Shown here: piece after piece, positions 4,626 to 55,200 of the stretch | Position numbering within the stretch: the first letter of the stretch is position 1 | Layout: each line of letters opens with the position of its first letter | NCBI GenBank assembly: GCA_036504555.1 | Contig: DASXUZ010000080.1 | Location: forward strand, 4,003-68,002 | DNA: 64,000 nt | Direction: 5' to 3' | DNA from: Prolixibacteraceae bacterium | GTDB lineage: Bacteria; Bacteroidota; Bacteroidia; Bacteroidales; Prolixibacteraceae | The notes under the pieces: generated by a model | Told to the model about the DNA's origin: nothing | Databases searched by the model: none | The model's input: only the letters and a program-made list of their open reading frames with translations | Position numbers and translations under genes: made by a program

Positions 4626-4747
4626 TATGCCAGGGCTATTGCATCTGTAATCTATCTGTAATCTATCTGTAATGTATCTGTATTCTATAATACAGATACA
4701 TTACAGATAGATTACAGATAGATTACAGATGCAATAGCCCTGGCATA
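4626..4747. repeat. Perfect 122-bp palindrome (59-bp arms, 4-nt loop CTAT) built from 11-bp units ATCTGTAATCT
   Basis: Arm 4626-4684 is the exact reverse complement of 4689-4747. Each arm holds about 4 tandem 11-mers. Confidence 0.97.
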
Positions 4748-13360: not shown

Positions 13361-14029
13361 ATGAACATTGTAGTCATCGGATTAGGAAATTTTGGGGCTT
13401 CTCTTGCAAAAATTCTTACCTCATTGGGTCATGATGTATTGGGGGTGGATAACGATTTGGCCAGGGTTGAATACTTTAAAGACGCTGTTGCCAATACCAT
13501 CAGTCTGGATGCTACCGATCCGCACGCCCTGCGACTGTTACCTCTCAAGGAAGCAGATGTATTTGCAGTCTGTATTGGTGACGATTTCGGGATTTCTGTC
13601 AAAATTGCGGCATTGCTGAAGAAATTTGGCGTTGCAAGGGTCATTTGTCGCGAAAGTTCATCGATTCATCTGACAGTGCTCAATGCCATTGGCATCAAAG
13701 AGACCATTAACCCAGAGTACGAATGGGCAAAGATTTTTGCTCAGAAACTTCCATTGGTTGGCATCCAAAACCTGTTCTCTATTACCGAATCATTCAAGAT
13801 TGTGGACCTTTTTGTGCCTATTTCGCTGATTGGCAAAAAGTTTTCACCTGCCAATTTTAGAAAAGAGATGCACCTAAAGATAATTGCTTTGAAAAGGAAC
13901 CACCGAATCGTTTATTCTTCTGCTCTGGCAGCCGAAGATGAAGATAAAAATGAAATTGAATTCAAGGAAAACGACACCTTGGTTTTGGTGGGCGAATTAC
14001 GTGACATTAAAAGGTTCCTCCATGGCTAA
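13361..14029 (+). CDS. trkA: Trk/Ktr potassium uptake RCK (NAD-binding) subunit
   Basis: IGLGNFG Rossmann motif, INPEYE and a TrkA-C-like tail; co-oriented 11 bp after trkH. Confidence 0.92.
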   Translation: MNIVVIGLGNFGASLAKILTSLGHDVLGVDNDLARVEYFKDAVANTISLDATDPHALRLLPLKEADVFAVCIGDDFGISVKIAALLKKFGVARVICRESSSIHLTVLNAIGIKETINPEYEWAKIFAQKLPLVGIQNLFSITESFKIVDLFVPISLIGKKFSPANFRKEMHLKIIALKRNHRIVYSSALAAEDEDKNEIEFKENDTLVLVGELRDIKRFLHG

Positions 14030-14261
14030 TGTCAGGTCTCAGCTGTTGTGACGATTTAAGAGTGGGCTATATTCCTTGGTTGTGCAATTTATTGGATTCG
14101 TCCCACTCATGGGTAATTGATAATATGAATACCTGGTATTTTTCAATCCAGCAATTGACGACCATATAAGTGTATTTAGAGGTTTTCAGTGAAAAAGGAT
14201 TGATTCTTCAAATACCCAGGGCTTACACCAAATTACAGGACCTCATCAATTCAAATCCATG

Positions 14262-14433
14262 TTGCACCGTTTGCACGATTTGCACGATTTGCACGCCTGA
14301 TAGTTTTATTTGATCCAGTTCAATGGTTTGTTCTTTTGAGAAAGGGAAAGTAGAAAAAGGGAGAAAATGTAAATCGTGAGAATCATGCAAACCATGCAAA
14401 TCGTGCAAAACGTGCAAAACGTGCAAAGTGCTC
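14262..14433. repeat. Foldback element family 1, copy A: 4x TTGCACGAT-like 9-mers, spacer, 7 inverted 9-mers
   Basis: TTGCACCGT TTGCACGAT TTGCACGAT TTGCACGCC ... TGCAAATCG TGCAAAACG TGCAAAACG TGCAAAGTG CTC. Homologous over its whole length to 37426-37569. Confidence 0.92.
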
Positions 14434-14602
14434 ATTAAATGGCAGTATGCGGGGTGGGTAGATTTATACTTGCTCTTTGGGTTTTACCCCCATGGATGAT
14501 CGGGCAAACTTATTGGCAATGTTTTAGTATAAAGTAACCACTCAAATTATTCCAGCGGAATGCATTTCTGTGAAGACCCGTTTTTAAAGATCTATGCCAA
14601 AA

Positions 14603-14636
14603 TAGACCTATTACTCGAGACACGACAATAGGTCTA
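14603..14636 (-). terminator. Hairpin overlapping the apbE stop codon
   Basis: 10-bp stem TAGACCTATT / AATAGGTCTA. Confidence 0.55.
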
Positions 14637-15641
14637 ATCCTCTTCCACAATCATTTTCTTCATTCCTTCCGAGAAGTAAACCTCATAGACGCCCTCGGGA
14701 TTGCTGTACACAAAATAAACTTCAATTCCCTTTAGTTTTGAAAGCAGTTCCTTGCTTTTGTCAATTCCCACGACCATAAAAGCAGTTGCCCAGGCATCAG
14801 CCGTGATGCAATCATCACATACGACCGTGGCACTCAACAAGGTATTGCGGGCTGGGAATCCTGTTTTAGGATCAATCGTATGGGCATATTTCACCCCATC
14901 CTCCACAAAAAACTTCCGATAGTTTCCAGAAGTGGCAAGGGCTTTGTTGTCAATTTCGATGATCGCCTCCAGGTCGTTACCAGGCATCATATTGCCCTCT
15001 GAAGGCCGATCGATGCCAATGTGCCACAATTTATCCTTGCCATTGGTCCCTTTTCCCCGAACTTCTCCCCCAATTTCAACGAGGTAATTTTTAATACCTT
15101 TCTCTTTAAAAAAATCACAGACAACATCTACCGAATAACCCTGGGCAATGGCATTCACATCGATTTTTACACCAGGATATTGCTTGATCACTTTATGGCC
15201 TTCAAGTTTTACCTTATCCATTCCAACATATTGCAGCAAGCTGTCGATGTATGCTGTATCGTGCTTGGCAACAGGGCCATTTCCAAACCCCCAGGCACTA
15301 ACAACAGGGCCAACGGTAATGTCGAAAGCTCCTCCTGAAACGATGTTCACCTCAGCCGATTTATTGAAAACTTCCACGAACCAGTTGTCAGCTTCAACGG
15401 TGGGATCATTGTTGTTAATCCTTGAAATAATAGAGGTTGAATCGTAAATGGAAAGTGACCGATCAAAAGCCTTCAGAATGGAGTCAATGTCAGTGCTGTA
15501 ATCCTTGTTGTTTGAATTCTCATAGGTAATGTGGTAGGTAGTGCCTTGTGCAAATCCTGAAATCTTCAGGTATTCACTTTTTTTATCCCGGCAGGAGGCC
15601 ATTAACAGAATGGATATCAATGCAAGAAAGGTAAATTTCAT
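14634..15641 (-). CDS. apbE: FAD:protein FMN transferase (lipoprotein)
   Basis: Lipobox LMASC, GFAQGTTYHI, IDVNAIAQGY, EIGGEV, ATSGNYR, HTIDPKTG and ADAWATA. Start placed at MKFTF. Confidence 0.95.
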   Translation of the reverse strand: MKFTFLALISILLMASCRDKKSEYLKISGFAQGTTYHITYENSNNKDYSTDIDSILKAFDRSLSIYDSTSIISRINNNDPTVEADNWFVEVFNKSAEVNIVSGGAFDITVGPVVSAWGFGNGPVAKHDTAYIDSLLQYVGMDKVKLEGHKVIKQYPGVKIDVNAIAQGYSVDVVCDFFKEKGIKNYLVEIGGEVRGKGTNGKDKLWHIGIDRPSEGNMMPGNDLEAIIEIDNKALATSGNYRKFFVEDGVKYAHTIDPKTGFPARNTLLSATVVCDDCITADAWATAFMVVGIDKSKELLSKLKGIEVYFVYSNPEGVYEVYFSEGMKKMIVEED

Positions 15642-15819
15642 GGCTATTGTGTTTGCTGATTGGTAAATTTTCATGACAAATGTAGAATATATAAGCTAGG
15701 CCAACAAATGATCAGCTTAGAGGTTGAAAGTTTCTTTTCCCATATTGAAACCTACTTTTCATTTTAATCATTAATTTGGTGCCCGATAAAATTAACACAA
15801 GAATTCAAATATAGAACCC

Positions 15820-18213: not shown

Positions 18214-18218
18214 GTGTT

Positions 18219-18384
18219 AAAAAAAGATTACACGGATTTCAAAAAAAAAGATTACACGGATTGCTTCCATGTTTTCTTATTTCTTATTCCTCATTTATTA
18301 TTTCTTATTTCTAATTTGAAATGAATGATTAACCATCCAACCATTTAACCATCTAACCCTTCAACCATCTAACCATTAACCATT
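18219..18384. repeat. Three adjacent simple-repeat blocks filling the prfA-pyrF spacer
   Basis: 2x AAAAAAAGATTACACGGATT (18219, 18243); 7x 7-bp TTTCTTA-like (18273-18321); 7x 7/8-bp AACCATCT-like (18331-18384). Confidence 0.9.
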
Positions 18385-25828: not shown

Positions 25829-28018
25829 TTATTTCACGAATAATAATTCCCTGTATTTTGGCAATGGCCACAGTTCGTTGTCCACGATCAACTCAAGTTT
25901 GTCGATGTGGGTACGAATATCATCCAGATAAGGTCGTACAGTCTTTTCGTAGGCGTAAGTCTTTTCCTTTTCAGTTTCAATGATATTGGCCACTTTTCGG
26001 GCTTCGATCAACTCTTTTACCTTGGCTTTGATGGAAGAAACATGACCACCAATTTCCCTGATCAGTTCAAGACGGCCTTCAGCAAGCGATTTATATTCAT
26101 CATCGCTGAATACGAGTTTCAGGTTCTTCACGTTTTCAAGCAACATTGACTGGTACTGAATAGCAACAGGTACGATGTGGTTAATGGCCAAATCGCCTAA
26201 CACGCGGGCTTCGATCTGGATCTTCTTGGTGTATTTTTCCAATTCAACTTCGATACGTCCTTCAATTTCTCTTGGGCTCAACACACCCATTTTGCCATAC
26301 ATTTCAATGACGCGTTTGTCGTGCAATGCTTCCAGAGCAGTAGGAACGCTGGTAATGTTGGTCAAGCCGCGTTTGGCAGCTTCCACTTTCCATTCATCGC
26401 TGTAGCCGTTACCGTCAAAGCGGATGGCTTTAGATTCGATGATCAGTTTTTTCAATACCTGGAAGATGGCTTCGTCTTTTTTAATGCCTCCTTCAACCAA
26501 TGCATCTACTTCTACCTTGAATTTAACCAGCTGATCGGCTACGGCAGTATTGAGTGCAATCATGGCAGAGGCACAGTTTGCAGAAGAACCTACAGCACGG
26601 AATTCAAAGCGGTTACCGGTAAAGGCAAACGGAGAAGTACGGTTACGGTCGGTGTTGTCCAGGATGATTTCAGGAATACGGCCGATGTTTAGTTTAAGAG
26701 CTGTTTTTTCATCCGGGGTCATCTTGCGGTCAACGACAGCTTCTTCCATCATATCCAACATTTTGCTTACTTCAGTTCCGAGGAAAGCTGAAATGATTGC
26801 AGGTGGAGCCTCGTTTGCACCCAGGCGGTGTGTGTTGGGAGCGGTCAGGATGCTGGCGCGCAACATGTCCTGGTTCACATGCAAAGCCTTCAGGGTGTTG
26901 ATCACAAAAGTGAGGAACTGAAGGTTTGATTTTGGGTTTTTCCCGGGGGAATATAAGTTAACACCCGTATCAGTGGCCAATGACCAGTTGTTGTGTTTTC
27001 CAGAACCGTTGATCCCGGCGAATGGTTTTTCATGAAAAAGAACGGCAAAGTTATGACGACGTGCAATCTTTTTCATCAAGTCCATGATCATCTGGTTGTG
27101 ATCATTGGCCAGGTTACATTCTTCATAGATAGGGGCCAATTCGAATTGGTTGGGAGCAACCTCGTTGTGACGAGTCTTACAGGGGATTCCCAATTTGTAT
27201 GCTTCGTTTTCCAGGTCTTCCATGAAACGGAATACGCGGGTAGGAATTGAACTGAAATAGTGGTCATCCAATTGCTGATCTTTTGAAGCAGAATGTCCCA
27301 TCAGGGTACGTCCGGTCATCACAAGGTCAGGGCGGGCCATAAACAAGGCTTCGTCAACCAGGAAATATTCCTGTTCCCAACCTAAATTGGCGCTCACCTT
27401 GGTCACATTCTTATCAAACATCTGGCACACGTCAGTGGCAGCTTTATCAACAGCAGCAAGCGCCCTCAGAAGCGGGGTTTTATAATCAAGTGCTTCGCCG
27501 GTGTATGAAATAAAGATGGTAGGAATACACAATGTATTGTCAACGATAAAAGCGGGAGAAGAAGCATCCCAGGCCGTATAACCGCGGGCTTCGAAAGTTT
27601 GACGGATACCTCCACTGGGGAAAGAGGAAGCATCAGGTTCCTGCTGAGACAACATTGACCCGGACAAAGATTCAACAACCGTCCCATTTTCACCATGAAC
27701 AACAAATGCGTCATGTTTTTCGGCTGTGCCATCCGTTAATGGGTGAAACCAGTGTGTAATGTGAGTGGCTCCATTTTCCAGAGCCCATGCTTTCATGCCC
27801 TGAGCAACCTGATCAGCCATTTTGCGATCGATGGCCGTTGCATGGTCAATTGCATCCACAACTGCCTTATAAGCCTCTTTCGACAGGTATTTCTTCATTT
27901 TCGTACGATCGAATACACACATGCCGTAAAAATCAGAAACCAGGTTGTCTTCTCTTTTAACTTCTACCGGTTTTCTACGAAGAACTTCTTCCAAAGCCCT
28001 AAATCTGAATTGTGCCAT
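25829..28018 (-). CDS. glnA: Glutamine synthetase type III
   Basis: 729 aa; THWFHPLT, EPDASSFP, GWEQEYF, HNEVAPNQFE, HEKPFAGINGSGKHNNW and NRTSPFAFTGNRFEFRA. Confidence 0.96.
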   Translation of the reverse strand: MAQFRFRALEEVLRRKPVEVKREDNLVSDFYGMCVFDRTKMKKYLSKEAYKAVVDAIDHATAIDRKMADQVAQGMKAWALENGATHITHWFHPLTDGTAEKHDAFVVHGENGTVVESLSGSMLSQQEPDASSFPSGGIRQTFEARGYTAWDASSPAFIVDNTLCIPTIFISYTGEALDYKTPLLRALAAVDKAATDVCQMFDKNVTKVSANLGWEQEYFLVDEALFMARPDLVMTGRTLMGHSASKDQQLDDHYFSSIPTRVFRFMEDLENEAYKLGIPCKTRHNEVAPNQFELAPIYEECNLANDHNQMIMDLMKKIARRHNFAVLFHEKPFAGINGSGKHNNWSLATDTGVNLYSPGKNPKSNLQFLTFVINTLKALHVNQDMLRASILTAPNTHRLGANEAPPAIISAFLGTEVSKMLDMMEEAVVDRKMTPDEKTALKLNIGRIPEIILDNTDRNRTSPFAFTGNRFEFRAVGSSANCASAMIALNTAVADQLVKFKVEVDALVEGGIKKDEAIFQVLKKLIIESKAIRFDGNGYSDEWKVEAAKRGLTNITSVPTALEALHDKRVIEMYGKMGVLSPREIEGRIEVELEKYTKKIQIEARVLGDLAINHIVPVAIQYQSMLLENVKNLKLVFSDDEYKSLAEGRLELIREIGGHVSSIKAKVKELIEARKVANIIETEKEKTYAYEKTVRPYLDDIRTHIDKLELIVDNELWPLPKYRELLFVK

Positions 28019-28339: not shown

Positions 28340-29578
28340 TTATTTCTTTTTCTTTCTGGATTTGACTGTTTGGGCTGTTTTTTCTTCTTCCACCATCAGG
28401 GCTTTCCAATCGTTGGGATTATCCTCCGACAAATCGATGGTGGCCGTGTAGTCTTCCTTGTTGATGAGCAGAACTTTTACTTTCTGATCCAGGAATGTTT
28501 CAATTTCATCCAGAACAGGTTTTTCTTCAGGGCTGCAAAATGAAACGGCCAGCCCCTTTTTCACCCCGCGTCCGGTTCGTCCGACGCGATGTACGTAGTT
28601 TTCGGCCACTTCAGGCAAATCATAATTGATTACATAATCGACATCGGGGATATCAATGCCCCTTGCACTGACATCAGTGGCAATAAGAATTTTCACCTCT
28701 CCGGTCTTAAAGCGGTTCAACACATCGATCCGGTCCTTTTGATCCTTATCGCCATGGATGGTGAGGCTTTCGATCTCCACCCTCTCCATGGCCTTAAAGA
28801 CCCTTTCGGCCCTGACTTTTGTACGGACAAATACCAGAATCTTTGAATCAGGATGTTCTTTGACCAATCGCTCCAGGAAATAGCGCTTGTCATCCATATC
28901 GATCATTGCCACCGAATGGGTTACATTTTTAGCCACCGGATTCTTGGGCGATATCTCTATACGAATGGGATTTGAGGTCAGTGAATATGCCAATTCCTTG
29001 ATTTCAGGACTGATGGTCGCTGAAAAGAAGAGCGTCTGCCTGCTTTTGGGAAGATGGTGGATCAATTGCCGAATGTCGTTGATAAACCCGAGTGCCAACA
29101 TGTGATCCGCCTCATCGAGTACCAGCACCTGAATTTTATCCAGCAGGATGTGCCCCTGGCTCACCAGATCAAACATGCGGCCTGGAGTGGCGATTAAAAT
29201 ATCCACTCCGTTTTTCAAGGTCGATATCTGGGGATCCTGTTCAACGCCTCCAAATACACAGGCTGTTTTAACCCTTGTATACCGGCCAATGGTTTGAAAA
29301 ACCTCAGTCAGCTGCAAGGCCAGTTCGCGGGTAGGCACCATCACCAGGCAGAAAATATAATCGCTACGACTACTACTTTTTAATTGATGAATGATATCGA
29401 TCACAGGAATGGCGAACGCGGCTGTTTTGCCTGTGCCGGTTTGAGCAATGGCCAAAACATCATCTCCTTTCAGGATGGGAGAGATGGCTTTGTATTGAAT
29501 ATCGGTGGGCCGGCGAAAGCCTAAACTTTCAAGACTTCGTTTTATATCAGAAGAAATGCGGTAATCGTCAAATTTCAT
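28340..29578 (-). CDS. DEAD-box ATP-dependent RNA helicase
   Basis: Q motif, AQTGTGKT, PTRELA, TPGR, DEAD, SAT, ARGID and HRVGRTGR. Start at 29578 or 29587. Confidence 0.96.
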   Translation of the reverse strand: MKFDDYRISSDIKRSLESLGFRRPTDIQYKAISPILKGDDVLAIAQTGTGKTAAFAIPVIDIIHQLKSSSRSDYIFCLVMVPTRELALQLTEVFQTIGRYTRVKTACVFGGVEQDPQISTLKNGVDILIATPGRMFDLVSQGHILLDKIQVLVLDEADHMLALGFINDIRQLIHHLPKSRQTLFFSATISPEIKELAYSLTSNPIRIEISPKNPVAKNVTHSVAMIDMDDKRYFLERLVKEHPDSKILVFVRTKVRAERVFKAMERVEIESLTIHGDKDQKDRIDVLNRFKTGEVKILIATDVSARGIDIPDVDYVINYDLPEVAENYVHRVGRTGRGVKKGLAVSFCSPEEKPVLDEIETFLDQKVKVLLINKEDYTATIDLSEDNPNDWKALMVEEEKTAQTVKSRKKKK

Positions 29579-36127: not shown

Positions 36128-37354
36128 TTATGCTTTGGCTGCAGATTTTTCAACTGCCCGAAAAACCCTTAAAAGATTACCACCCCATATTTTCTTTATT
36201 TCATTTTCAGTATACCCTCTGCGAAGTAACTCCAGGGTAATATTTGGGAACTGGCTCACATCGGCACAATCGCGCAATCCGCCACCTCCATCAAAATCAC
36301 TGCCAATACCCACATAATCAACACCCACCAGCTTCTTCACATAGTCAATATGATCGACCATTTCCTTGATCGTTGGAAGTTCGCTGGTATAACTGGCCTG
36401 CACATCATCCCATTCCTTTTCAAAAACAGCCTTGTCTGCTTCCGACATGCTGTTATAGGTGGTCCTGTATATTTTATGAAGTCGTTTTTCAGTCTGGAAT
36501 TTAACAGAAGTTGTATCTGGTTCCTTGATATACACATCCAGCAGACAAATCTGAATCACACCCCCCTTTTGGGCCAGCTTTTTAATCATCTCATCGGTCA
36601 TGTTACGATTGTGCATCGCCACCGAACGCACTGAACTGTGGGAGGCGATCACCGGAGCCTTGCTCAATTCAATGGCATCAAAAAATGACTTGTCCGATGC
36701 ATGTGAAATATCTACCATCATTCCCAGGCGGTTCATTTCAGCGATCACCTGACGGCCAAAATCGCTCACCCCCTTGTGCTCTGCCGGAGCTGGATCGCTC
36801 GACGAATCACAGATATCGTTGTGGAATGAATGGCAAAGGGTAATGTATCGAACGCCTCGTTTGTAAAACTCTTCAACACGTGACAAATCCGTTGCAAGAG
36901 GAAATCCATTTTCCATACCTATATAGGCAGCTCGCTTACCTGTTTTTTCAATGCGTTCCAGATCATCCGCCTTGAGGGCAAGCGTTACAAGATCGCTGTT
37001 GTTTTTGACCATGGCATGAATGGAATCAAGCATTTGATTGGCCAGTGCATATACCTTCTGGTAATTTTCCTCAGTACGTGGCTTCTGCCCGGTAAATACG
37101 GCGAAAAACATGGCATCCAGTCCACCTGATTTCATGCGTGGCAAATCAACCCGGCTTTTGGGAGCCTTGTGCTCATCGCGGATGTTGAACCCCGGTTTAA
37201 TCATCTGCATGGGGGTATCGCAATGGGTATCAATGGTCAAACAGTTGGCATGGATGCGCTGTGCCTTCTTTTCCAGTTTATTCATATCCTTTTCAGTTGT
37301 AAAACCCATTAGCATTCCTAAAGTCAGGCAAAGGGTCAGCGCTTTTGTAATCAT
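36128..37354 (-). CDS. Membrane dipeptidase (peptidase M19), exported
   Basis: IDTHCD, GMENG, YITLCH, VDISH, IASHSS, GSDFDGGG and GGNLLRV. Likely start MITKAL. Confidence 0.92.
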   Translation of the reverse strand: MITKALTLCLTLGMLMGFTTEKDMNKLEKKAQRIHANCLTIDTHCDTPMQMIKPGFNIRDEHKAPKSRVDLPRMKSGGLDAMFFAVFTGQKPRTEENYQKVYALANQMLDSIHAMVKNNSDLVTLALKADDLERIEKTGKRAAYIGMENGFPLATDLSRVEEFYKRGVRYITLCHSFHNDICDSSSDPAPAEHKGVSDFGRQVIAEMNRLGMMVDISHASDKSFFDAIELSKAPVIASHSSVRSVAMHNRNMTDEMIKKLAQKGGVIQICLLDVYIKEPDTTSVKFQTEKRLHKIYRTTYNSMSEADKAVFEKEWDDVQASYTSELPTIKEMVDHIDYVKKLVGVDYVGIGSDFDGGGGLRDCADVSQFPNITLELLRRGYTENEIKKIWGGNLLRVFRAVEKSAAKA

Positions 37355-37425
37355 AGCTTCAGTTGATTTTTGGTTTTGAGATTCCAAATGTAATGAAAAA
37401 AACTATTTTGTAATTTTCATCATTT

Positions 37426-37569
37426 TTGCACACTTTGCACGATTTGCACGATTTGCACGGCTGTTGTTTTTAATCAATTTTGGTTCAAAGACTTGTTTTT
37501 TTGAGAAGGTGGAATAGAAAAGAGAGAAAATGCACATCGTACAAAACGTGCAAATCGTGCAAAGTGCTC
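37426..37569. repeat. Foldback element family 1, copy B (4 + 4 nine-mers)
   Basis: TTGCACACT TTGCACGAT TTGCACGAT TTGCACGGC ... TGCACATCG TACAAAACG TGCAAATCG TGCAAAGTG CTC, with the same central spacer as copy A. Confidence 0.92.
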
Positions 37570-37673
37570 TCCCAATTACCTTCCCCATCGAAAAAACAGG
37601 GCCATTCATCGAAAAAAATTGCAGCCTGATTGAATTCTCTCGATCTTCGTCTCAGAATTAAAAATCAACAATT

Positions 37674-38399
37674 ATGAAACTCAAGAAATTAGTGCTCATT
37701 AGCGGAATCCTGTTCTTTATTTCAGGATGTGGTGACTTTTTCATGATCTGTTCGCTGAACCACTTCTACCTGGAGAAAGATGTCACCCTGGCTCCCGAAA
37801 TTGAGGGCAGTTGGACTGTCCATCCGCTACGCGCCAAATCGGATACAACAGAGGATCAATCCAGCATCTGGCAATTGGCCGACACAACTTCTATATGGCA
37901 AATCAAACAATTCTTTTCAGAAGAGAAAGTAAAGACCAAAAGGGGCCAGGATTCTATTGTTTTCAAGCCTCAGAATCATTACGTTGTAAAACTGACGGGC
38001 CAACATCCAGATTCCATACGCTACCAATACCGACTGGATCTGTTCCGCATAAAGGGCAACTTGTATGCCGACTTCTGCGCTTATGAATCACCGGCAATAA
38101 AAGGCAGCCGGGTGGAAAAAGAAAATTACCTGACCGTACACACCCTTGCCAGGGTTCGAATTCACAATAAGCAACTGAATGTTTCGTGGCTGGGGTCGGA
38201 ATACATGCGAGACATGATTGAAAAGAAACATGTCAGGATTAAATACCATTATGTGCAGGATGCCCAACGATTGTTGCTCACCGCCTCATCGGAAGAATTG
38301 ACCAATATGATTGAGCGATATGCTGATCAAACGCGCTTTATTGACTGGCAAGACCAGCCTGCCATGTTACAATTAACTCCCATCAATCCACTGCCATGA
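37674..38399 (+). CDS. Hypothetical lipoprotein
   Basis: Lipobox FISGC; ATGA overlap with the downstream kinase gene. Confidence 0.8.
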   Translation: MKLKKLVLISGILFFISGCGDFFMICSLNHFYLEKDVTLAPEIEGSWTVHPLRAKSDTTEDQSSIWQLADTTSIWQIKQFFSEEKVKTKRGQDSIVFKPQNHYVVKLTGQHPDSIRYQYRLDLFRIKGNLYADFCAYESPAIKGSRVEKENYLTVHTLARVRIHNKQLNVSWLGSEYMRDMIEKKHVRIKYHYVQDAQRLLLTASSEELTNMIERYADQTRFIDWQDQPAMLQLTPINPLP

Positions 38400-42473: not shown

Positions 42474-42571
42474 CATGGAGCTTGGAGCAGGGGGCCTGGG
42501 GCACAGAACGCCCCCGATCGGCACGCAACGTTGAACTTTAAACGTTGAACCTTAAACTTTGCACTTTAAAC
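42474..42571. repeat. 14 in-phase heptads including GATCGGC-ACGCAAC and 6x NTTRAAC-like units
   Basis: CATGGAG CTTGGAG CAGGGGG CCTGGGG CACAGAA CGCCCCC GATCGGC ACGCAAC GTTGAAC TTTAAAC GTTGAAC CTTAAAC TTTGCAC TTTAAAC. Confidence 0.85.
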
Positions 42572-53061: not shown

Positions 53062-54630
53062 ATGAAAGCTGACAGCCCAAAGTTTTATCATTCGCTGTTT
53101 ATTACCATCCTTCGGGTATCCATTGGCTGGCATTTCCTCTTTGAAGGAATCTCCAAAATTGTACAGGGAAACTGGACCGCTTCCACCTATTTACTCAATA
53201 CCACGGGCTTTCTTTCGGGATTCTACCACTGGATTGCAGGCTCTCCGGGGCTTTTGATGGTGACTGATATCCTGAACATGTACGGGCTGCTGCTCATTGG
53301 ACTTGCCCTCTTTATTGGCTTATTCAGCCGCTATGCTGCACTGGCAGGGGCTTTGCTGCTTACCCTCTATTATTTTGCCTATCCACCTTTCGGCAACCCG
53401 ATGATGAACACTTCAGACGGTCATTTATTCATGGTCGATAAACTGTTTATTGAAGCTGCCGCCCTCTTGTTTCTCTTCTTTTACCGTGAACAAGGATATT
53501 GCATTGATAACCTACTTGACGCATACCGCAGTCGCAAGAAATCACCAGTTGCCGCTACTGCATCCACCACTGAAGAAGTGAACTCACGCCGGGAAGCGCT
53601 GAAGAACCTGGCTACCATACCCGTATTGGGAGCAATGGGCTGGGGAGCGGTGAACAACTTCAACACCTATGGCGTCGATGTCATGTCGGGAGCAACCATC
53701 CAGGTCAAGCAGACCGCCTTAAGCGAACTGAAAGGCGCATTGCCCAAAGGCAAGATCGGGAAGCATGAAATCAGCCGACTCATTGCCGGGGGAAACCTGA
53801 TTGGCGGATGGGCCCACTCGCGCGATTTGATCTATGTGTCTACCCTATTCAAAGCATACAATACCGAGAAGAAAGTTTATGAAACATTGATGCTGGCCGA
53901 ACAAGCGGGCATCAACACCATCAATATCGGTTTCCCTTCCAATCCATTGCTGGCCAAATACAAGAAGATGACCGGCAGCAATATCAAGATCATCTCCCAG
54001 ATTGCACCCAAACTGGACAACAGTAAGCTTTCGGAGGTTGGACCTCATACTGACAAGAAGCTCTATTTTGAATTCATTGACCAGGCCATCGATGCCGGGG
54101 TGGATATTCTCCAGGTGCAGGGAAACTGGTGTGACTGGCTGGTACGAGACAACAAGATTGAAGTGATCGATGAGATGATCGCCTACATCCGCAAACAGGG
54201 TTACACCGCCGGACTGGCAGCCCATTCGGTTGAATCACTCATTGCATGCGCCGATCAGGGCATCATTCCTGATTATTACATGAAAACCATGCACCACGAT
54301 CAATACTGGTCGGCCCACCCACGCGAATTCCGCTTCCCTTTTGAAGTGGACGGAAAGGAATACCTCGACCACAACCGTTTTCACAACAACATGTTTTGTC
54401 TCTTCCCTGAACGTACCGTAGAATTTGTGGCCAAGGCAACAGTGCCGGTAATGGGTTTCAAGGTACTGGCCGCCGGCTCCATCGAACCACAGGATGGCTT
54501 TAAATGGGCCTACGACAACGGGGCAGACTTTATTTGCGTCGGGATGTTTGACTTCCAAGTTGTCAACAATGTGAATATTGCCATAGACTGCCTGAATAAA
54601 ACCAACCGTACGAGACCCTGGCACGGATAA
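53062..54630 (+). CDS. DoxX/DoxD membrane domain fused to an internal Tat-like segment, a DxxSGAT motif and an aldo/keto-reductase-like barrel
   Basis: LRVSIGWHFLFEGISKI and 4 TMs; SRREALK (aa 175-181); DVMSGAT (aa 206-212); LPKGKIG...ISRLIAGGN; MGFKVLAAG...ICVGMFD. Confidence 0.8.
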   Translation: MKADSPKFYHSLFITILRVSIGWHFLFEGISKIVQGNWTASTYLLNTTGFLSGFYHWIAGSPGLLMVTDILNMYGLLLIGLALFIGLFSRYAALAGALLLTLYYFAYPPFGNPMMNTSDGHLFMVDKLFIEAAALLFLFFYREQGYCIDNLLDAYRSRKKSPVAATASTTEEVNSRREALKNLATIPVLGAMGWGAVNNFNTYGVDVMSGATIQVKQTALSELKGALPKGKIGKHEISRLIAGGNLIGGWAHSRDLIYVSTLFKAYNTEKKVYETLMLAEQAGINTINIGFPSNPLLAKYKKMTGSNIKIISQIAPKLDNSKLSEVGPHTDKKLYFEFIDQAIDAGVDILQVQGNWCDWLVRDNKIEVIDEMIAYIRKQGYTAGLAAHSVESLIACADQGIIPDYYMKTMHHDQYWSAHPREFRFPFEVDGKEYLDHNRFHNNMFCLFPERTVEFVAKATVPVMGFKVLAAGSIEPQDGFKWAYDNGADFICVGMFDFQVVNNVNIAIDCLNKTNRTRPWHG

Positions 54631-54645
54631 ATAAACGATGGTGCA

Positions 54646-55200
54646 ATGAATCAGGAAGCTGAAATTCCGATACCTATCCGGTTTAATTCCTTTAAACATC
54701 ATCGGGATTATATCCTGGAGGTTCTGAAAACGGCCTCTCCTGAATTGATTGCAAGCCTGTTGGACCCCTTGTGCAACAATTATATCGACATTTATTCCGG
54801 GACCCTCACACCGGAGGCTATTTTTCATCAGGTGATTGACATCCTTCAATCCAACCAGGTATTTCAGCCAGATGACTTTACCTCCTGGGTCGATACCATC
54901 AACGGTTACCGGCAAATCACTCTGGTAGACCAATCGGAATGGGTGCTCAGAAAAAGCAATGAAGAGGAACGTTACATTCACCTGCATCCGGCACGCACAG
55001 GACCTTTCTCCATGCGTTTTAAGGGTTCTACCTTAAAAACAGTCTGGATGCTGAAAACCAATTCCCCAAGCCCTCAGCACTCCCCCTCACTGGAAAAAGT
55101 GAACCAGTTAAGAATACAGATTGGCCTTTCACCCGTCAAAAAGCTAGACCGAAGCAAGGGTATTTTAAACTGCTATGAAAAATTCTTTTTGCAGGACTGA
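54646..55200 (+). CDS. Hypothetical cytoplasmic protein (184 aa)
   Basis: Clean ORF 15 bp after the DoxX fusion; candidate motifs FNSFKHH and YIHLHPAR. Confidence 0.75.
   Translation: MNQEAEIPIPIRFNSFKHHRDYILEVLKTASPELIASLLDPLCNNYIDIYSGTLTPEAIFHQVIDILQSNQVFQPDDFTSWVDTINGYRQITLVDQSEWVLRKSNEEERYIHLHPARTGPFSMRFKGSTLKTVWMLKTNSPSPQHSPSLEKVNQLRIQIGLSPVKKLDRSKGILNCYEKFFLQD

Follow-up and report, generated by a model that had tools for sequence, protein, structure and literature searches.

A dispersed family of foldback repeats with tandem 9-bp arms in a Bacteroidota genome

Two foldback repeats in a 64-kb window (the whole stretch of DNA analysed, G000:C80:4003-68002) belong to a dispersed family with about 17 copies in the source assembly (G000; 5.24 Mb, 322 contigs) and a few diverged members in a sister species. 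The copies have defined termini (ATTCAAATCC... on the left and ...AGTGCTCA on the right), inverted arms of 9-bp units and a 50-bp core, and both window copies are absent from the orthologous sites of relatives. We propose, with a probability of roughly 0.7, that the family is a non-coding, hairpin-forming insertion element, that is, a miniature foldback.

Tandem-armed hairpin repeats occupy much of the intergenic DNA of the source genome, a member of the Bacteroidota with 19 SusD and 130 T9SS sorting-domain matches. Similar repeats occur in many phyla, and the literature holds passing descriptions of them and no mechanism. Unlike near-perfect palindromes, the family described here is oriented and has a conserved core and fixed ends, which makes it a useful case. 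A collinear sister genome allows its insertions to be dated, unit slippage is directly visible, and nested copies tie it to the arms of small-gene cassettes.

Anatomy and copies in the source genome

The two window elements, copies A and B, align with 80% identical columns (window sequence). Common to both are four forward TTGCACGNT units, a spacer that is T-rich and then purine-rich, inverted units that end in AGTGCTC in either copy, and the end ...GTGCAAAGTGCTC. This layout of forward 9-mers, asymmetric spacer and inverted units had been described in the original prediction, and both reading and alignment bear it out. A probe of two TTGCACGNT units, allowing up to two mismatches, gave 11 matches in the window against 0.03 expected, all of them within copies A and B. 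The features are as follows.

14030..14633, no strand: non-coding block from the trkA-like stop to the apbE stop, DNA inserted in this lineage; eight congeners have 4-23 bp here, and the closest relative, G048, has 4 bp on its collinear contig
14125..14248, + strand: left flank module of copy A, ending ...ACAGGACCTCATC (all-against-all BLAST of loci)
14249..14261, + strand: left terminus motif ATTCAAATCC plus 3 nt, copy A; variants in most copies, even those without the longer flank
14262..14297, + strand: left arm of copy A, 4 x TTGCACGNT, read from the sequence
14298-14372, + strand: whole spacer of copy A, between the left and right arms
14296..14345, + strand: spacer core of copy A, consensus CCTGGTnGTTTTATTTGATCnAGTTCAATGGTTT..TTTTTTGAGAAGG (nhmmer profile)
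14346..14372, + strand: purine-rich spacer half of copy A, variable in length (15-copy alignment)
14373..14426, + strand: right arm of copy A, 6 x ANCGTGCAA-type units, the inner units degenerate
14427..14434, + strand: right terminus AGTGCTCA of copy A; AGTRCTCA follows the right arm in most copies
14435..14622, + strand: right flank module of copy A, with nested sharing among up to 12 copies
37413..37425, + strand: left terminus of copy B, ATTTTCATCATTT, matching the family motif at 9/13 positions
37426..37461, + strand: left arm of copy B, 4 units
37461..37510, + strand: spacer core of copy B (nhmmer E = 4.4e-5)
37536..37562, + strand: right arm of copy B, 3 units
37563..37569, + strand: right terminus AGTGCTC of copy B, with conserved host DNA (TCCCAATTA...) directly after it (flank aligned with G048 and other congeners)

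Copy A is a long form of ~490 bp (14125-14622) and copy B a minimal form of ~157 bp (37413-37569). The right arm of copy A has six clear units, or seven when the terminal CAAAGTGCT is included, as in the earlier count, and that of copy B has three clear units where four had been counted. The right arm of A is thus three units longer than that of B, equal to 27 of the 28 bp by which the copies differ in length, so that unit number explains nearly all of the difference, as had been predicted. The gene contexts are also as first described: copy A lies between the convergent ORFs 13361-14029 (+, TrkA-N-like) and 14634-15674 (-, ApbE), and copy B between the divergent ORFs 36128-37387 (-) and 37674-38399 (+).

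A tandem-unit search of the source genome returned ~15 full foldbacks plus partial arrays, and an nhmmer profile of the spacer core matched exactly 16 genomic loci, each flanked by TTGCACGNT arms. Adding one nested composite to these 16 core-bearing loci brings the family to ~17 copies, with several partial arrays besides. The genome-wide search for spacer plus arms that the original prediction had proposed therefore did yield further copies, and its view of a two-copy family does not hold. Pairwise identity of the cores averages 73% (range 48-90%), with no near-identical pair.

Beyond the arms, most copies have a ATTCAAATCC-like left terminus, often after ACAGGACCTCATC, and the right terminus AGTRCTCA; the left terminus comprises ~13 nt of conserved sequence outside the 9-mers. 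Many copies also have additional flank in common in a nested manner, 25-125 bp on the left and 25-200 bp on the right. In the left flank module, the last 25 bp are common to seven copies and ~125 bp to two (all-against-all BLAST of loci). BLAST among the loci found no shared flank apart from a foldback, and the right flank module was not found without one, except as a contig-edge fragment (C104). Homology between copies tapers off gradually, with no single sharp boundary. The short form measures ~145-190 bp and the longer variant, with extra flanks, ~490 bp.

All copies are intergenic, and no long ORF is overlapped at the 16 paired loci. In the orientation seen in the window, 12 of 16 copies follow immediately downstream of a gene that points the same way, and copy B is the one copy located in a divergent-gene spacer among the 14 that have a long ORF called to either side. 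On the element strand, GC skew, a proxy for the replication strand that is confounded by gene strand, is positive at 11 loci and negative at five of the 16, which gives no clear sign of a replication-strand bias.

Across copies, the left arm has 2-5 units and the right arm 2-12. The order of unit variants is kept from the outside inwards, with AACGTGCAA at the terminus, then ATCGTGCAA, then ACCATGCAA-type units, and blocks of a single variant have been amplified (ATCGTGCAA five times in C313, A(T/C)CATGCCA five times in C316). Gain and loss of whole units together with block-amplified variants fits the signature expected of slippage, which upholds the suggestion, made from two copies, of slippage among units. 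The arms of one copy are not mirror images, and in the TTGCACGNT family they therefore evolve independently. Transitions that break pairing are present in both arms, and the sole self-complementary piece of the TTGCACGNT unit is TGCA.

Orthologous sites and relatives

Comparison with related genomes shows each window copy to be a lineage-specific insertion. In eight congeners, 4-23 bp separate the stop codons of the trkA-like gene and apbE, versus 604 bp of repeat DNA in the source genome. The gap is 65 and 138 bp in two other congeners, and in three further ones a coding-looking extra stretch of ~860-1020 bp lies between the two genes. The closest relative found, G048, has a contig (C335) that is collinear with window 12621-39641 at ~82% nucleotide identity and is without both window copies, with 4 bp at the site of copy A. 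At the copy B site this contig (C335:20660-20900, L180) carries an unrelated element with ~45-bp terminal inverted repeats, and in many congeners the spacer there is ~120-130 bp. Both copies are thus missing from relatives' sites in the trkA-apbE and copy B spacers, a comparison that the original prediction had named. That prediction had missed that both copies are insertions by this comparison, that conserved termini and flanks extend beyond the arms, and that hundreds of tandem-unit foldbacks, this family among them, populate the genome.

The congener spacer at the copy B site ends in the conserved motif CCTTCCCCATCGAAAAAACAGGG..TTCATCGAAAAAA, which starts nine bases past AGTGCTC in the source genome. 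This fixes the right junction of copy B, and the conserved right flank begins directly after AGTGCTC. The left junction is in a variable stretch and is not placeable to the base; with the left junction imprecise, no direct repeat that could be a target-site duplication was seen at copy B or at the short copies. Other congeners carry different hairpins at the copy B site (TATTCCTGCA...TGCAGGAATA), and these together with the unrelated G048 element make the site an insertion hotspot. The genus-conserved motif (window 37579-37625), situated upstream of a lipoprotein-like gene, consists of CCTTCCCCATCGAAAAAACAGGG..TTCATCGAAAAAA with a direct repeat of CATCGAAAAAA and is probably a promoter or operator; copy B is inserted just upstream of it.

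BLAST detected no family members in 24 congeners and 16 order-level relatives, and the conserved right end had no exact match in public metagenome contigs. The sister genome G048 carries, at other sites, three diverged homologues with the TTGCACGNT unit and a core whose homology is recognisable (77% over 74 bp with a copy in the source genome); internally they are longer by ~110 bp, and a further inverted repeat surrounds them. Given these three homologues, the family is older than the species split and has expanded in the source species. One of the homologues (G048:C290:470-565, L192) has a Shine-Dalgarno-like AGAGGAGGA and a 27-codon ORF, which is broken in a second copy, and its extra sequence could be the relic of a former cargo gene.

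A single other assembly of the same population was found for strain comparison (JGI 3300035523), and element length is identical in it. Scans for three tandem units returned 25 genome, 49 metagenome and 6 viral loci, which are unrelated arrays without the family core; an inverted partner is present in just three of these public loci. Identical or similar 9-mers are thereby seen in arrays of unrelated bacteria and of phage contigs. A tblastn search of the small cassette proteins of the source genome against the public array loci returned nothing. Tandem TTGCACGGT 9-mers were also seen in unrelated high-GC phage contigs (L181-L186), where inverted copies adjoin once (L184:10121-10199); these arrays may be iterons or operator arrays unrelated to the family.

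Other tandem-unit foldbacks in the source genome

At a TRF score of at least 50, the source genome has 1,840 arrays, or 351 per Mb, compared with 5 per Mb in an order-3 Markov simulation and ~55-60 per Mb in 200-kb samples of two complete congeners, a density about six times that of the congeners. The favoured periods are 7, 8, 9 and 11. There are 975 non-overlapping arrays of period 7-12, built from 199 canonical unit types; an inverted partner is located within 400 bp of 56% of these arrays, and the TTGCACGNT family ranks about sixth. Further short-period arrays in the window are found at 4626-4747, 18214-18384 and 42474-42571. Annotators of such MAGs should be aware that contig breaks fall within these repeats.

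Some arrays of this kind carry genes. Of the four PF05635 genes, three clearly lie between inverted tandem-unit arms, as does one of the three PF13366 genes.

C107:26858-27169, C29:211-522, C65:24633-24896, C195:31365-31661 and C260:921-1271: small PF05635 (23S rRNA IVS protein) or PF13366 (PDDEXK_3) genes with flanking arrays

Each of these genes has its own unit; inverted arms enclose the gene clearly at four loci and less so at C195. The core of the TTGCACGNT family has no detectable similarity to the cassettes. A link between the two is provided by the composite at C65:16016-16284, which has outer TTGCACGNT arms and inner arms of GTGACAAAG-type 9-mers; the GTGACAAAG-type unit brackets the PF05635 gene at C107:26858-27169.

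A Y1_Tnp pseudogene with one TAG (C66:13819-14088; C66:13400-14700 including its arrays) lies inside inverted arrays of ~43-bp repeats, each of which contains a CCTTAGTAA 9-mer doublet. Gene-less foldbacks of CCTTAGTAA arrays occur at four loci (C65:1505-1868 and C66:18967-19345, 26376-26670 and 29015-29249). Pseudogene and arrays together resemble a RAYT-type system in which a tandem 9-mer takes the place of the REP. Three Y1_Tnp genes are intact (C245, C154 and C283). The one on C245 is flanked by a REP family of the classical type, CTATCCTTTGCCGTCGGTTTTAACCGACGG (C245:53760-54000 and 54600-54718), and variant REP copies interrupt foldbacks at C65:7720-7850 and C66:20430-20470. A foldback with TTCCGCAA 8-mer arms adjoins two family copies on their left side (C315, C37), and the matching window position (14055-14110) holds a short hairpin, AGAGTGGGC...GTCCCACTC; this suggests that elements nest at the same spot.

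Competing readings and published repeats

Both window copies are overlapped by minus-strand ORFs of 68-70 aa and the arms are open in all six frames by construction, which would be compatible with a small repeat-containing peptide. However, among 15 copies a frame is open across the element on the bottom strand in nine, on the top strand in five and on neither strand in four, so that a through-frame is missing from the bottom strand in 6/15 and from the top strand in 10/15. Copies do not agree in which frame is open, and the differences in spacer length are not multiples of three. These data contradict a coding function, which we consider scarcely credible, and the inconsistent through-frames agree with the earlier view that conservation is at the DNA/RNA level; the 68-70-aa ORFs over such elements should not be annotated as genes. 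A top-strand mini-ORF from GGAGAAAATG was likewise dropped: its ATG is a unit variant, TAA comes next in two copies and ATA replaces it in two others. Alternatively, the element could act as RNA, a selected long 3'-UTR hairpin that ends or protects the upstream transcript or marks it for RNase III processing. In favour of this are the 12/16 copies that lie co-oriented just downstream of a gene and the RNA fold, which is stabler on the top than on the bottom strand in 12/16 copies because the T-rich spacer half can form G-U wobble pairs with the purine-rich half. However, RNAalifold on 15 aligned spacers returned a 4-bp stem alone with no covarying pair, so no conserved spacer structure emerges; neither end of the hairpin, on either strand of both window copies, is followed by the T-run of an intrinsic terminator, nor is there a U-tract; pairing-breaking transitions affect both arms; and the same sites in relatives are without the element. 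A permissive Rfam search at the locus gave weak microRNA-model matches, all below the gathering score, and such sub-threshold models react to any long hairpin; over the whole 64-kb window the single above-threshold match is a tRNA. We consider an RNA role unlikely. Of the family description in the original prediction, then, the foldback and the conservation at nucleic-acid level stand; the idea of two copies does not, and that of a structured RNA gains no support.

The core is conserved in sequence without structural covariation, as might be expected if it were the site of a bending protein and the arms were arrays of sites for a DNA-binding or nucleoid protein, as has been proposed for the Geobacter metallireducens pairs and as in E. 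coli BIME-1/RIP; the paired inverted arrays also match the layout of the 'global regulator binding sites' of G. metallireducens (PMC2700814). The genome has ~200 unit sequences of the same design, however, too many for dedicated binding proteins; moreover, the 9-bp spacing is off the helical repeat and relatives lack the sites, and we regard this reading as very improbable. Another reading is a REPIN-type element, an inverted REP doublet mobilised by a cognate RAYT (an IS200-like Y1 transposase). It has the same layout of two inverted arms around a ~70-bp spacer, and the genome contains four Y1_Tnp genes, each with its own flanking repeats; one of the four is the C66:13819-14088 pseudogene within inverted CCTTAGTAA doublet arrays, an array type that is also gene-less elsewhere. 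Within RAYT-like genes of other Bacteroidota MAGs, TTGCACGGT-like arrays adjoin a REP-like palindrome. However, no Y1_Tnp gene in the assembly has flanking TTGCACGNT arrays, and the arms are direct 9-mer arrays, not 20-40-nt imperfect palindromes, with no GTAG-type head. Like arms also bracket PF05635 and PF13366 genes and are therefore not RAYT-specific. In sum, a REPIN in the strict sense appears rather unlikely.

We favour a miniature foldback that would spread by copying and inserting a single-stranded hairpin intermediate, with catalysis in trans. Single-stranded DNA of copy A forms a stable hairpin (-37.4 kcal/mol, z = -4.3). Candidate catalysts are an IS200/RAYT-type HUH enzyme or the machinery that moves small-gene cassettes with like arms, and the conserved core and termini would be the recognition features for that machinery. 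Insertions would persist mainly just downstream of genes, where a long hairpin may do little harm, unit number would subsequently drift by replication slippage, and any consequence for the host, for instance through a hairpin at the 3' end of an RNA, would be incidental. Placement and folding are compatible with preferential insertion or survival at the 3' ends of genes, and also with a function as a 3' RNA hairpin. The 322-contig assembly contained no gene-bearing or autonomous copy with TTGCACGNT arms, and neither the assembly nor 74 public unit-bearing loci contained opposed TTGCACGNT arrays around a gene-sized segment. In this fragmented assembly TTGCACGNT flanks none of the four Y1_Tnp genes, each of which is flanked by other repeats. 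The data show the insertions, the anatomy, the absence of coding and the signature of slippage; the single-stranded hairpin intermediate and the mobilising enzyme are putative. The copies are old (mean core identity 73%, no near-identical pairs), and current activity is therefore putative. A broader scheme, which we hold to be doubtful, would make the tandem-unit foldbacks gene-less passengers of one unrecognised system that inserts hairpin DNA just past stop codons, with core and termini as the enzyme's handle and the PF05635, PF13366 and IS200-like genes as cargo or drivers.

Several known systems resemble the family in part. Like REP, BIME and REPIN elements, its copies are short and extragenic, lie mostly at gene 3' ends, and consist of inverted pairs around a ~70-bp spacer that form long hairpins; in BIME-1 the spacer is conserved and binds protein. 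Unlike these elements, the arms are tandem 9-mers and not single imperfect palindromes, and a cognate RAYT was not found, while classical REP/RAYT pairs coexist in the source genome. With MITEs and Foldback elements the family has in common small size, lack of coding capacity, inverted ends, dispersal and absence from orthologous sites, and the arms of eukaryotic Foldback elements are built of tandem subrepeats. Unlike MITEs, it has no detected target-site duplication and no parent IS with matching ends, and its ends are not sharp. The family also resembles 23S rRNA intervening sequences and the PF05635/PF13366 cassettes, in that inverted tandem-unit arms bracket such genes in the source genome and one of these arm types is nested in a TTGCACGNT element; unlike those cassettes, the TTGCACGNT family is gene-less and its core has no detectable similarity to them.

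The GGGNATC heptamers of Xanthomonas and Nostoc and the cyanobacterial STRR are highly abundant, vary in unit number, and are enriched in non-coding DNA but depleted where ORFs diverge (Rehm et al. 2015, PMC4692102). The family is like these heptamer arrays in its variable unit number and avoidance of divergent spacers, and unlike the G-rich heptamers, which are discussed as quadruplex formers (PMC4692102), its 9-mer has no G-tracts and forms a foldback around a conserved core. In Geobacter metallireducens, paired tandem octa- and heptanucleotide sites of classes 1-3 were read as 'predicted global regulator binding sites' (Aklujkar et al. 2009, PMC2700814); sites of classes 1 and 3 have about four or five tandem 7-8-nt units, are paired across opposite strands with variable distance between them, and are multicopy, intergenic, species-specific and of no known function. 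The likeness is in arms that are tandem arrays of short units in opposite-strand pairs, multicopy and intergenic. The differences are another phylum and other units, a conserved asymmetric 50-bp core, fixed non-symmetrical termini and shared flanks, together with copies that are shown to be insertions against sister genomes. Literature searches turned up no description of such repeats in Bacteroidota. The family is a fresh example of a widespread, mechanistically unexplained kind of repeat whose closest published match is in Geobacter metallireducens.

RAYT-like genes with an MPNHIH motif were also observed in Bacteroidota MAG contigs L025, L027 and L031 (ORF L031:2696-3355; Pfam Y1_Tnp match sub-threshold, E = 0.0034). 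Their HUH motif is separated from the remainder of the protein by an in-frame insert, a (HGL/HGS)n run specified by GGTTTGCAC 9-mers and then a perfect 28-bp palindrome reading VETHGRASLQ.
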